Origin: a bacterium
GTDB lineage: Bacteria > Hydrothermota > Tepidihabitantia > Tepidihabitantales > Tepidihabitantaceae
Direction of reading: 5' to 3'
NCBI GenBank assembly: GCA_046485285.1
Contig: JAWOHE010000051.1
Location: forward strand, 1 to 31,420
Length of the DNA stretch: 31,420 nucleotides
The notes under the pieces were generated by a model. That model ran no database searches. It saw only the letters and a list, made by a program, of their open reading frames with translations, and had not been told where the DNA came from. Below are positions 2,543 to 5,603 of this stretch, piece by piece. A program made the position numbers and the translations under genes. The first letter of the stretch is position 1. Every line of letters begins with the position of its first letter.

Positions 2543-3451
2543 TTGTTGTACCTGGCCGGAGCGGTGCTGACGGTCTTCTGGGTCGCGCTCGCCGGCTGGC
2601 TCTTCTACCGGGCAATCCGTTCCCGGCTCGGCGTGGCCGGCAATATCCTGCTGTTCACCAGCCTGCTCGTTCTGGGCTTCACTGCTGTCCATGGACTCGT
2701 CCTGCTCAACCCCGGCCCCCCGCTGCGGATTCTGTGGTGGGCACTGTTGGTCGGCAGCGTTGTCGCGCTCGCCCACGCCGTGCTCAGGATCTTGCCGTTT
2801 CCGACGCCGTCGTGGCTGGCGGCCCTGCTTGGGGATCCACTCTGGCGCCTTCCGACGCTTCCGGTCACCGTCATCAGCCGCACGGGCCTCCGGCCCGGGA
2901 TGCTGGTGGTGGAGGTCGGAGCCGGCTCCGGACGGCTCTCGGTCGAGGTGGCAAGGCGGCTTCTGCCCGGCGGGAGGCTGATTTGCATCGATATTCAGCC
3001 GGAGATGATACGGGCCATCACGACGAGAGCCGCCGATTCCGGCATCGACAACATCGAGACCCACGTTGCACTCGCCGAGCGACTCCCGGCAGGCATCGCC
3101 GGCGCGGACCTGGTCCTGTTCGTGGCGACAATCGGCGAGGTGAAGGACAAGCAGTCGGCGCTGGCCGAGGCGCTCCGCGTGCTCAAGCCCGGCGGCGTGC
3201 TGTCGGTAAGCGAGTTCACCAGTGACCCCCGCCACTGCCCGAAGGACGAGGTGAAACGCCTTGCGAAGCAGGCAGGGTTCGAGGAGCTGATGACACAGAA
3301 CGACGCGTTCGGCTTCACCGCCAACTTCTCCAAGCCGCGGGGCGCGGCCGACGCGCTGCCGTCCGCCGGACCGGGAAGCTACGTCGAGGAACCCCCACCC
3401 GTTGCCGGGCACCCGGTCGAATCTCCGGCCAGAGACAATCTGTCTCCCTGA
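2543..3451 (+). CDS. Class I SAM-dependent methyltransferase with N-terminal transmembrane segments
   Basis: Motif I VVEVGAGSG, ICIDIQPEM and RVLKPGG; about three hydrophobic helices at the N-terminus; TTG start after AGGAAG. Confidence 0.85.
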   Translation: MLYLAGAVLTVFWVALAGWLFYRAIRSRLGVAGNILLFTSLLVLGFTAVHGLVLLNPGPPLRILWWALLVGSVVALAHAVLRILPFPTPSWLAALLGDPLWRLPTLPVTVISRTGLRPGMLVVEVGAGSGRLSVEVARRLLPGGRLICIDIQPEMIRAITTRAADSGIDNIETHVALAERLPAGIAGADLVLFVATIGEVKDKQSALAEALRVLKPGGVLSVSEFTSDPRHCPKDEVKRLAKQAGFEELMTQNDAFGFTANFSKPRGAADALPSAGPGSYVEEPPPVAGHPVESPARDNLSP

Positions 3452-3458
3452 GGATACA
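3420..3458. promoter_or_regulatory. Putative upstream activator sites for promoter 2
   Basis: AATCTCCGGCCAGAGACA (3420-3437) and TGTCTCCCTGAGGATACA (3441-3458), again starting 21 bp apart. Confidence 0.65.
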
Positions 3459-3543
3459 ATGGCGCCGCAGCAATGGTACCTGCCGCACGGTCCGCGCCGG
3501 GCGATACCGGCGGCCGGGTGCTACGACCGCGGCGAGACGGCCC

Positions 3544-3559
3544 TGGCACGCGATGTGCG
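3544..3559 (+). promoter_or_regulatory. Sigma-54 (-24/-12) promoter 2
   Basis: TGGCACGCGATGTGCG with GG-N10-GC spacing. Confidence 0.75.
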
Positions 3560-3569
3560 GGTACCCATA

Positions 3570-3736
3570 CCAAGGGTAGGAACCAGGATTTGCAGCGACA
3601 GCGCGCAGTGTAATCCCCCCGCTGCCTGGTGTCGCGCACGGCGGGATGATGGGCAGACAATCATCCGGACGCCCTCGAGGGGTCGGCGGGAGTCGGTGGC
3701 TCTGCCTCCTTGTCGACTTCATGCCGACCCCTCGGG
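3570..3736 (+). ncRNA. Putative structured RNA/leader, copy 1 (three hairpins, CUGCCUCC loop)
   Basis: Stems GCGACA/TGTCGC (3595/3635), GGATGAT/ATCATCC (3644/3666) and CTCGAGGGGTCGGC/GCCGACCCCTCGGG (3674/3736). Homologous to 4637-4799. Confidence 0.55.
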
Positions 3737-3786
3737 AATTCACACGAGGACCCGAGGACAGCCTACCCGACCCGGCGCGCAGAGCG

Positions 3787-3842
3787 CTGAATTCTGAACT
3801 ATGAACCTTGAACTGCGAGCCTTGAACCACGGACCACGGGCC
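3787..3842. repeat. Degenerate 7-bp tandem repeat (8 units)
   Basis: ctgaatt ctgaact atgaacc ttgaact gcgagcc ttgaacc acggacc acgggcc. Confidence 0.7.
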
Positions 3843-3857
3843 CGGCCGCAAGAGGAG

Positions 3858-4109
3858 ATGAAGATGCCGAATACTGCAAGTCGGACCAGAGACGAGGAAC
3901 GCCCCGGCAGCGATGTGGCCGGACAGATGGCCGCGCCCGCCGGCGCGCCGGGCCGGACAGCCGCGCTCCGCCGCCGCGCGTCACCGCAGTTGAATCAGAA
4001 CCCCGAGGGCGGAACCCCCGGTACGGCCCCGGCTGGCGGGTCGCGCTTGACGCGAGCGCCCGCGCGGCACTACTGGCTGGTTCCGGTCGACCGTGACCGC
4101 CTGCCGTGA
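3858..4109 (+). CDS. Small hypothetical protein (low complexity)
   Basis: AAGAGGAG RBS next to ATGs at 3858/3864, downstream of promoter 2; no recognisable domain. Confidence 0.35.
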   Translation: MKMPNTASRTRDEERPGSDVAGQMAAPAGAPGRTAALRRRASPQLNQNPEGGTPGTAPAGGSRLTRAPARHYWLVPVDRDRLP

Positions 4110-4443
4110 CGAGACCGGGACCACTCGGCAAGGGAAGCCGGCCTCGAGGGCGCGCCGGGTCCCCGACGCCTCGCCCGAGTCCGGGTTCCTCTCGCAGGGC
4201 GACCCGGCCGTGAAGTCCAGGGGCCGAAGGCGCACCGCAGGGAAGCAGGCGGGCGAGAGGAAGCTCAAGACCGCGGTCGAGCGCGCCGAGCGCGAGGTGG
4301 TCGACAGGGTGCTCAAGCGGGCCGATGGCAATGTTGCCGATGCGGCCGGGGAGTTGGGTATCCTGCGAACCAGCCTCTACCGCATCATGAGGCGTTTCGG
4401 GATTACACCTCAGTCGCGCCGCGGGGACGAGTCATCCAGGTGA
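4093..4443 (+). CDS. Stand-alone Fis-type (HTH_8) DNA-binding protein; start uncertain (alternative GTG at 4210)
   Basis: LKTAVERAEREVVDRVLKRADGNVADAAGELGILRTSLYRIMRRFGI matches the HTH of the 1-1198 activator at 31 of 47 positions (manual count); no AAA+ domain. Confidence 0.75.
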   Translation: MTACRDETGTTRQGKPASRARRVPDASPESGFLSQGDPAVKSRGRRRTAGKQAGERKLKTAVERAEREVVDRVLKRADGNVADAAGELGILRTSLYRIMRRFGITPQSRRGDESSR

Positions 4444-4476
4444 ACAGGCGTTGCACCGGCGTGAACCACCCGGGGG

Positions 4477-4556
4477 TGTCTCCTTGCGGGCACGACCTTT
4501 GCGCCGCGGCGCCGGGCGAGCCTGTTCGTCGGCCCCGGTGTCTCTCTGGGGAAACA
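4477..4556. promoter_or_regulatory. Putative upstream activator sites for promoter 3
   Basis: TGTCTCTCTGGGGAAACA (4539-4556) and a weaker TGTCTCCTTGCGGGCACG (4477-4494). Confidence 0.55.
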
Positions 4557-4610
4557 CGGGTTCGGCGTCGCCGCCAGCCTGTCCTGCAGAGCTCGCCGGG
4601 CGGCTCGGTC

Positions 4611-4626
4611 CGGCACGCTATGTGCA
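4611..4626 (+). promoter_or_regulatory. Sigma-54 (-24/-12) promoter 3
   Basis: CGGCACGCTATGTGCA with GG-N10-GC spacing; closely resembles promoter 2. Confidence 0.75.
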
Positions 4627-4636
4627 TACTACAAGG

Positions 4637-4799
4637 TTAGTGGAAGATGGACGCGACCGGGGAACGACAGCACAACCCACGTGCCACGACGTGCGCTGTC
4701 GCGCAGATGGATGATGGTGCGCAATCATCCATGGGTAACACGGGGTCGGCGGCAGTCGGACAAGCGCACCTGCCTCCCAACCGGCGGCATGCCGACCCC
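4637..4799 (+). ncRNA. Putative structured RNA/leader, copy 2
   Basis: Stems CGACAGC/GCTGTCG (4665/4701), ATGGATGAT/ATCATCCAT (4707/4732) and GGGGTCGGC/GCCGACCCC (4742/4799); CTGCCTCC in the loop at 4770-4777. Confidence 0.55.
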
Positions 4800-4840
4800 A
4801 CCTTTCGACGGGATGACCAAACATCAGTAGGAGACGGGAT

Positions 4841-5338
4841 ATGAAACGCACAGTACTGACCGCGTTCGTGATTGTCGGCCTCTGCACCGGGGTTGCCGAT
4901 GCCCGGCCGCAGGGCTTCGGCCTGGGCCTGATGGGCGGGAACCCTTCCGGGCTCAGCGCCAAGATCTGGACCAGCCGCAACGTCGCGCTCGACGCCGGGC
5001 TGGGATACTCAATGTGGTCCGGGCGGGCGCTGCACTTCCACGGCGACGTGCTCTGGCATACGAACAGCCTGCTCCAGTCGTCGGGCGATGGCTATCTGCC
5101 GCTCTACATCGGCGTCGGCGCCCGCGTCGGGATGTCGGCGGACGACTACCCGGACACGAGGATCGGCATCCGGGTCCCGTTCGGGCTCGAGTACGTGTTC
5201 GCCAGCGTCCCGGTCGGCCTGTTCGTGGAAGTGGTCCCGACATTCGACCTTGCCGGGGTTCCGCCCAGCAAGGGATTCTTCGGCCCGCAGGGGTCAGTCG
5301 GGTTCCGCTACTACTTCAGCGGGTCCGCGCGGGACTAG
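4841..5338 (+). CDS. Small outer-membrane beta-barrel protein (DUF3996-like)
   Basis: Signal peptide; amphipathic strands GFGLGLMGGNPSGLSAKIW, LYIGVGAR, IGIRVPFGLEY, LFVEVVP; terminal GFRYYF. Confidence 0.75.
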   Translation: MKRTVLTAFVIVGLCTGVADARPQGFGLGLMGGNPSGLSAKIWTSRNVALDAGLGYSMWSGRALHFHGDVLWHTNSLLQSSGDGYLPLYIGVGARVGMSADDYPDTRIGIRVPFGLEYVFASVPVGLFVEVVPTFDLAGVPPSKGFFGPQGSVGFRYYFSGSARD

Positions 5339-5388
5339 CGGCGGCAATGACGTCCGCAGGTGAGAGCTCCGGACCGAGAAACCGGGCA

Positions 5389-5547
5389 AACCACCAAGGC
5401 ACAAAGAACCCGGCGGCCACCGGCCGCCGGGAAGCCGCGCCTTCGGCGCGGAGAGAAGGAGAACTCCGGCAGGATTCCGGAACGGACTCCCGGCGCGACG
5501 CGCCGGGGTTCGGACCCCAGAGTCTTCTGTCTTCGTGTCTTGGTGTT
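5389..5547. repeat. Intergenic element bounded by imperfect inverted repeats (CACCAAG.CAC.AAGA)
   Basis: AACCACCAAGGCACAAAGAA (5389-5408) versus TCTTCGTGTCTTGGTGTT (5530-5547); related motifs at 10183 and 30304. Confidence 0.55.
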
Positions 5548-5603
5548 GAATCCGACCCGGAGTCGACAAGTCAAGTTCGAGACAAGGAAAGGCTGGTGAC
5601 GGT

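Follow-up and report, generated by a model that had tools for sequence, protein, structure and literature searches.

Two copies of an RNA element lie behind sigma-54 promoters in the stretch of DNA analyzed here, the 31,420 nucleotides (nt) of contig JAWOHE010000051.1 (assembly GCA_046485285.1, from a bacterium of the family Tepidihabitantaceae, phylum Hydrothermota), hereafter called the window. Judged from sequence, this element represents a structured RNA family that has not been catalogued so far and whose distribution is lineage-restricted. The interpretation that we favor, with a probability of about 0.55, is that the RNA acts mainly in cis, as a leader of the genes that follow it; cis and trans roles may coexist.

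Two copies of the RNA and their sigma-54 promoters

Both copies are encoded on the + strand. By the bounds of a full-length covariance model (R2; 192 positions, 41 base pairs, with the promoter outside the model) they extend from 3567 to 3742 (copy 1, 116.8 bits) and from 4636 to 4806 (copy 2, 120.5 bits). Copy 1 represents a subtype that precedes a small open reading frame (ORF), referred to here as the MPN ORF, and copy 2 a subtype that precedes an outer-membrane protein gene; when aligned by MAFFT, the two share a mean column identity of 76%. An earlier note on this DNA had proposed that two elements with the same ordered hairpins occur here, and both were found in the positions that it had given. 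Its first stem corresponds to helix P1, which pairs 3592-3603 with 3627-3639 in copy 1 and 4661-4672 with 4694-4706 in copy 2, and which includes the pairing CGACAGC/GCUGUCG in both (3596-3603 with 3627-3634 and 4665-4672 with 4694-4701, respectively). The second stem, P2, was correctly described as far as the seven base pairs GGAUGAU/AUCAUCC are concerned (3644-3650 with 3660-3666 in copy 1; 4709-4715 with 4724-4730 in copy 2), whereas an additional GG..CA assigned to it sits in the loop. The third, P3, formed by GGGGUCGGC...GCCGACCCC plus an inner helix, was located in both copies (3679-3696 with 3713-3731 and 4742-4759 with 4781-4799). A compensatory change had also been claimed for the inner part of P3; one pair is indeed altered on both sides (G-U versus C-G), whereas of three others two have a change on a single side and the third is broken in copy 2. 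The loop of P3 contains GCCUCC, an anti-Shine-Dalgarno-like sequence, at 3704-3709 in copy 1 and at 4772-4777 in copy 2 (+ strand). Copy 1 folds with an energy of -89.9 kcal/mol (z -4.5), and none of 200 shuffled sequences folded equally well.

That the copies directly follow sigma-54 promoters is borne out by the presence of the exact sequence GGCACG-N4-GTGC at 3545 and at 4612. Promoter 1 (3545-3558, + strand; site TGGCACGCGATGTGC at 3544) has GG at -24 and GC at -12, and both this site and promoter 2 (4612-4625, + strand; site CGGCACGCTATGTGC at 4611) conform to the GG-N10-GC arrangement of sigma-54 promoters and come close to TGGCAC-N5-TTGCW. Each RNA copy starts about 10 nt after its promoter. 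Throughout the family, a motif of the form GGCA[CT]-N5-[TGA]TGC precedes every copy for which upstream sequence exists (28/28, three copies at contig ends being left out of the count), with its GG lying 22-28 nt before the start of the model. Since R2 omits the promoter, this linkage constitutes an independent check.

Upstream of the promoters are enhancer-like palindromes of the form TGTCTC-N6-GAKACA. The window contains 11 matches to this pattern against 2.3±2.0 expected, and 10 of the 11 are found 73-170 nt upstream of sigma-54 sites at 1392, 3545 and 4612. Two of them precede promoter 1 (3420-3437, with two mismatches, and 3441-3458, with none), one precedes promoter 2 (4539-4556, one mismatch), and the same palindrome is visible upstream of the RNA copies of relatives. 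The genome has an rpoN gene (Sigma54_DBD, 156 bits), and the window opens with the 3' part of a gene for a sigma-54 activator, or bacterial enhancer-binding protein (2-1198, + strand; Sigma54_activat, E 2.9e-69; AAA lid; HTH_8, E 9.5e-9), which is cut by the contig start. A related genome, G052, carries an RNA copy of the MPN type directly after the activator gene. The interpretation given in the earlier note, an undescribed sigma-54-dependent sRNA (small RNA) or leader family, is supported, as none of the refutation tests that the note had named spoke against it; rpoN, the activator gene and the palindromes lend additional weight to its sigma-54 part.

Not every promoter of this kind is associated with the RNA. 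A third sigma-54 promoter-like site (1392-1405, + strand; again the exact GGCACG-N4-GTGC) lies before a Big_9 gene (1511-2248) and downstream of two palindromes that fit the pattern perfectly or nearly so (1221-1259, at 1221 and 1242); in spite of this enhancer and promoter signature, R2 found no match there. In the same-family genome G041, the RNA stands before a Big_9-like lipoprotein gene, and the MPN operon has a sigma-54 promoter without the RNA. Because the promoters that bear the RNA differ between the window and G041, the module appears to have been shuffled among the promoters of one regulon.

Structure and distribution of the family

The copies share a common fold in which a single-stranded, purine-rich 5' tail is followed by P1, which encloses a small hairpin (P1a), by P2 and by the long, GC-rich P3. 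The 5' tail is conserved and unpaired, reading GAAGGRAAU or, in the window, CAAGGNUAG, and the joining regions are likewise conserved. In the P3 loop, GCCUCC is nearly invariant amid variable neighboring bases; divergent copies have GCUCCC or GCCACC in its place.

Covariation was assessed on an alignment of 31 model matches, corresponding to 28 distinct rows. Standard base pairs fill 92.9% of the cells in these rows, as opposed to 27-56% when the pairing partners are slid. Changes on both sides affect 17 of the 41 pairs, compared with 3.7±1.4 in shuffles (none of 500 reaching the observed number) and with 3-9 in the slid controls; when the analysis is limited to the genome copies (n=17), 12 pairs are changed on both sides versus 4.7±1.5 in shuffles. 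The covariation check suggested in the earlier note thus came out positive, pairs being kept by compensatory changes beyond what either type of control produces. Examples include A-U/G-U/G-C and C-G/U-A alternations in P1 and a U-A/C-G exchange in P2 that is present in four rows. At five positions G-U is the commonest pair; since these pairs are mismatches on the opposite strand, they point to an RNA made from the strand read from the promoter. RNAalifold independently recovers P1 and P3. With homologues and covariation both supporting an RNA, the element lies beyond chance.

The distribution of the family is narrow. A model built only from P2 and P3 of the two window copies (R1) retrieved these same two copies from their own assembly (2.34 Mb, 102 contigs, 88% complete) and gave strong matches (36-80 bits) in nine more genomes among 44 of the same family: G003, from the same genus, G041, and seven of the 11 genomes of one other genus. 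Altogether, 17 copies are found in 10 of the 44 genomes, with R2 scores of 110-183 bits and one to five copies per genome. Three weak R1 matches (L061, 26.6 bits; L077, 23.7 bits; L062, 22.6 bits) have no promoter, look like coding or partial hairpin matches, and were dropped. In 22 genomes from four sister families of the order, R1 had no match at E<=0.001. R2 yielded nothing in nine genomes of the family that lack the RNA, even when more candidates were scored. In a sample of 150 genomes of the phylum, where only 17 candidates per genome were scored, it yielded nothing outside the own genome.

Metagenome sequences were represented by 71 stretches obtained from one exact-pattern scan of metagenome contigs; 13 of these stretches contain copies by R2, namely 13 that score strongly (127-187 bits) and a pair with identical sequences and a weak score (36 bits). 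A metagenome locus (L148:1230-2520) displays a divergent third subtype, scoring 36 bits and accompanied by four enhancer-like sites and a sigma-54 motif; this copy has CCUCC in its P1a loop and GCCACC in its P3 loop, and a gene with a type IX secretion system (T9SS) sorting domain follows about 870 nt later.

The patchy occurrence of the RNA tracks that of close orthologues (at least 68% identity) of the membrane protein encoded downstream of copy 2. At loci of paralogues that are about 50% identical to this protein, R2 with its filters off gave no match below E 0.005 (best scores 16.0 and 12.6 bits), and no sigma-54 motif was found upstream of them, except in G055, where a different, shorter leader is present. 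At that locus (L098, G055:C125, about 2010-2143) the membrane-protein orthologue is 54% identical, the sigma-54 motif lies 133 nt upstream, and the intervening leader is unrelated to the RNA described here.

No known RNA family corresponds to the element. Rfam 15, which includes Qrr, GlmY/GlmZ and the riboswitch classes, produced 0 matches in the window at gathering score; at E<=10 within 3450-4900 there were just two chance-level matches, neither accounting for the RNA, and at E<=1 in six related loci nothing overlapped it. These results agree with the earlier note, whose reader recognized neither a known riboswitch nor a known sRNA in the sequence. A related locus has a match to PtaRNA1 (L070:1494-1540, - strand; E 0.037) whose 29.2 bits fall short of the gathering score of 47 and which is probably due to chance. 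A literature search at the level of listings and abstracts turned up no description of the element.

A leader, a small RNA or something else

Whether the RNA is an sRNA or a leader had been left undecided in the earlier note. By position it is mostly a leader, as a recognizable gene lies shortly downstream in 24 of the 31 copies. The gene for a small outer-membrane protein is preceded by 21 copies, and the MPN ORF, followed by a gene of the HTH_8 type, by three; one copy precedes a lipoprotein gene and one the genes that remain after deletion of the protein gene. Start codons in these leader-type copies are found 25-141 nt past the end of the model and always on the same strand. Within the window, no further promoter-like site occurs between P3 and the ORFs; expression of the downstream genes should therefore pass through P3. 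There is no U run after P3, where the tails read CUCUGAAAUUGC, ACCUUUCG and UCGGGAAUUC, and no terminator was called there on the + strand, by a U-tract criterion that may not hold for this lineage. Because P3 is very stable yet lacks a U run, a leader that gates elongation, stability or translation is favored.

One could picture this as follows. The RNA would make up the first 170-195 nt of the transcripts issued from the sigma-54 promoters of one activator-controlled envelope and stress regulon and, as their 5' leader, would add a post-initiation checkpoint to several operons of this regulon. Located 35-60 nt before the start codon, P3 would probably serve as an attenuator or as an element affecting stability or translation, and the leader would be read by a factor that recognizes either P1-P2 or the loop with GCCUCC. 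In addition, a short form of the RNA, ending after P3, may accumulate.

Several points weigh against this picture or against parts of the fold on which it is built. The transcript and its ends are predictions from the DNA, and so is any termination at P3. Inspection revealed no switch-like alternative pairing, nor did the leader show a covarying contact with its own ribosome-binding site. Four pairings tried by eye were rejected, as they showed no covariation. Two of them involved the P3 loop, once with the 5' tail and once with the ribosome-binding site of the gene itself; a third would join the 3' strand of P1 to the 5' strand of P3 (a possible switch), and the last would close the element by a helix of its 5' and 3' tails. 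As to the fold, copy 2 is no better than its shuffles (z -1.3, with 21 of 200 folding equally well). The promoter pattern is not significant by itself either, matching the window 10 times with at most one mismatch against 8.2 expected, so that the two window copies, taken alone, are suggestive and not conclusive. The RNAalifold consensus contains neither P1a nor P2. Because the alignments were fitted to the model, the counts are biased in favor of the structure. Finally, the sequences are close kin from a narrow clade in which the outer stem of P3 is invariant and much of P2 nearly so; being hardly variable, these helices yield little covariation information. The remaining objections concern a purely cis role. 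In G041, one RNA copy is free-standing, with another promoter and copy following 215 nt later; in the divergent metagenome copy, the roughly 870 nt downstream have no coding signature, the GC content being flat across codon positions; the copy number is variable; and the nearly invariant GCCUCC loop resembles the seed of a base-pairing sRNA.

The last group of observations suggests that the element might instead be a family of trans-acting sRNAs comparable to Pxr or Qrr, a possibility that we take seriously while considering it somewhat doubtful. Each copy would then have its own sigma-54 promoter, P3 would end the transcript or mark a processing site, the exposed GCCUCC loop would pair with the Shine-Dalgarno regions of target messengers, and the downstream genes would be expressed by read-through. 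The arrangement of copies in tandem also fits such a role, as does the sequence directly after P3, which is A/U-rich relative to the GC-rich genome. The subtype found in G052 directly follows the activator gene, just as pxr follows nla19 (PMC5568312). On the other hand, most copies lie shortly upstream of a recognizable ORF on the same strand with no other visible promoter, and P3, besides lacking the U run, was not called by a consensus terminator scan. Moreover, searches of the genome yielded neither an Hfq nor a CsrA gene, which at 88% completeness does not imply true absence. When loops and 5' tails were compared with 2362 putative start regions, the duplex energies followed noise-level distributions, and a genome-wide duplex scan thus gave the trans-acting alternative nothing above noise. 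In the start region of a gene for a 661-amino-acid (aa) secreted repeat protein (G000:C80:6186-8291, - strand), 12 contiguous bases could pair with the P3 loop of copy 1 and eight with that of copy 2; the family of this protein numbers dozens of paralogues in each genome, and no clear orthologue of it exists.

A more elaborate scheme, which we regard as improbable in its entirety, would unite both modes in a regulon-wide riboregulator. Here, a module comprising enhancer, sigma-54 promoter and 190-nt RNA would move from promoter to promoter within the envelope-stress regulon. The RNA would act in cis as a checkpoint and, once set free behind P3 by termination or cleavage, in trans as an anti-Shine-Dalgarno sRNA that alters the synthesis of outer-membrane proteins, with the HTH_8 protein, as a separate version of the DNA-binding domain of the activator, closing the loop at the DNA level, all in an uncultured lineage apparently devoid of Hfq and CsrA.

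As a special case of the cis-acting leader, the RNA might be a ligand-sensing riboswitch, with P1-P2 as the aptamer and P3 as the expression platform. Its 5' untranslated position, its conserved joining regions and its occurrence before several different genes of one regulon are all compatible with this idea. We nonetheless judge it quite unlikely: the hairpins are arranged in a row instead of forming a closed junction, inspection revealed no alternative pairing of the putative aptamer with P3, no known class matches, and the associated genes have stress, envelope and regulatory functions, not metabolic or transport ones.

Conservation at the level of DNA, reflecting a site downstream of the promoter to which the activator or the stand-alone HTH_8 protein binds, has a very low probability in our estimation. 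The most conserved stretch, TGTCGCG-N-GGATGA, does bear a loose resemblance, by eye, to the palindrome TGTCTC-N6-GAKACA, but its second half-site is not kept, the palindrome search called no site inside either copy, and compensatory changes along with strand-specific G-U pairs indicate an RNA.

The least tenable proposals would make the element a small gene for a protein or else a mobile repeat (a miniature inverted-repeat transposable element, MITE, or a repetitive extragenic palindrome, REP), both named in the earlier note as ways in which its claim might fail. Some copies do have one stop-free forward frame, but stops interrupt all three forward frames in four of 17 copies, and even in close relatives the distances from one conserved block to the next vary by 1, 2 or 4 nt, which are not multiples of three (overall, the interior of P1 measures 21-44 nt, the loop of P3 15-21 nt and the linker joining P2 to P3 11-17 nt). 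Given these non-triplet spacings and the stops in every forward frame of several copies, no conserved peptide exists, and no reading frame is shared across copies; an AUG that some copies have in their 5' tail is missing from others. As for a repeat, BLAST of each copy against its own assembly returned the copy itself and, weakly, the other one, and with only two copies in this genome and every copy that has upstream sequence lying behind a sigma-54 motif, the element is no MITE or REP. Short BLAST matches over the middle hairpin in relatives (40 searched) were set aside as chance, as they fall within a protein-coding gene family.

Several known systems offer parallels to the leader and to the sRNA alternative alike. 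In Klebsiella, the nasF leader, recognized by NasR, mediates regulated termination behind a sigma-54 promoter, and in Escherichia coli the ompA messenger has a structured 5' untranslated region (UTR) with a hairpin at its 5' end. The present RNA resembles these examples in that a long structured leader separates the promoter from an envelope or regulon gene and, as proposed here, adds control after initiation. Unlike the nasF leader, however, the RNA has neither a dual-hexaloop (ANTAR-type) motif nor a U-tract terminator, and its 5' end is predicted to be single-stranded, in contrast to that of ompA. NfeR1/alpha-r14 and CcsR are stress- or nutrient-induced RNAs, sometimes present in multiple copies, that carry C/U-rich motifs of the CCUCC type in hairpin loops; they have several such loops and promoters of other types. 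The RNA described here shares with them the anti-Shine-Dalgarno loop, but has a single GCCUCC loop and a sigma-54 promoter. The quorum-regulatory Qrr RNAs of Vibrio, which depend on sigma-54 and the activator LuxO, are roughly 100 nt long, Hfq-dependent and equipped with canonical terminators. Qrr1-5 occur as several homologous copies per genome (PMC3730234). Our element resembles them as a multi-copy RNA behind sigma-54 promoters, but lacks any Rfam match and comes from a genome in which no Hfq gene was found.

The closest analogue in organization is Pxr, from Myxococcus and its relatives, although the likeness concerns gene organization only. The pxr gene has a predicted sigma-54 promoter and a coding region of 108 nt and stands alone between the activator gene nla19, just upstream, and an NADH dehydrogenase gene; a triple stem-loop is predicted for its RNA, and some species have tandem paralogues, each with its own sigma-54 promoter (PMC5568312). 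The RNA of the window differs in that it measures 170-195 nt, lies mostly directly before ORFs and belongs to a different, uncultured lineage.

If it acts as proposed, the RNA would add to the sigma-54-linked regulatory RNAs a structurally unrelated family from uncultured bacteria. To our knowledge, few sigma-54-dependent regulatory RNAs are known (Qrr, GlmY/GlmZ, CrcZ, NrsZ and Pxr), and nearly all of these come from Proteobacteria or Myxobacteria. What would be unusual is the attachment of an RNA to several operons of one activator regulon, as opposed to a single stand-alone gene. The clear promoter and enhancer signature and the defined gene set could make it a tractable model of combined control at the transcriptional level, by activator and sigma-54, and at the level of RNA. 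The element also appears specific enough for inclusion in RNA family databases.

Downstream genes and neighborhood

The ORFs downstream of the two window copies are unrelated to each other, as the earlier note had remarked. Copy 1 is followed by the MPN ORF (MPN...RHYWLVP, 81 aa; 3864-4109, + strand), which has conserved termini around a low-complexity middle and no match in Pfam or NCBIfam. Counterparts exist at two related loci (L072:1660-1875 and L070:1868-2080); all three begin with MPNxA and end with RHYWL(V/A)P, the intervening part being rich in Arg, Gly and Ala and not conserved, and the ORF overlaps the start of the HTH_8 gene. Its product might be an RNA- or DNA-binding peptide.

The HTH_8 gene itself (4093-4443, + strand) encodes a stand-alone protein of 116 aa (Pfam HTH_8, E 7.9e-10) that is 63% identical (33/52, BLASTP) to the DNA-binding end of the activator encoded at 2-1198. 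Being made from an operon behind a promoter of the regulon, this protein could compete for the enhancer sites and so exert negative feedback.

Copy 2 precedes the commonest gene behind the RNA (4841-5338, + strand), whose product is a small secreted protein, probably an outer-membrane beta-barrel. Other genomes likewise have orthologues, 68-80% identical, located behind the RNA. Among its language-model neighbors, a minority of members carry DUF3996 or OMP_b-brl, which we treat as a lead only.

Further downstream, the genes between 5604 and 8823 encode two membrane proteins of the lmo0937 family, an ElaB/DUF883 protein, a 122-aa membrane protein and a protein with CarboxypepD_reg and OmpA domains. 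A related locus has a weak match to a Holin-X-type family, and a related contig carries CsbD. By these family assignments, the neighboring genes are a stress and envelope set. Some of the same genes recur at another locus of G041 (L074, G041:C156, 1-1010), where an RNA copy lies beside the end of an IS30-like transposase fragment and is followed only by an internal fragment of the membrane-protein gene and then by genes of the lmo0937 and DUF883 types; the locus appears to have been rearranged while promoter and RNA stayed intact.

In the window, the membrane-protein gene is separated from this set by an intergenic region of 265 nt (5339-5603) that contains several GC-rich hairpins followed by a T-rich run. 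This region could be a terminator or another RNA element.

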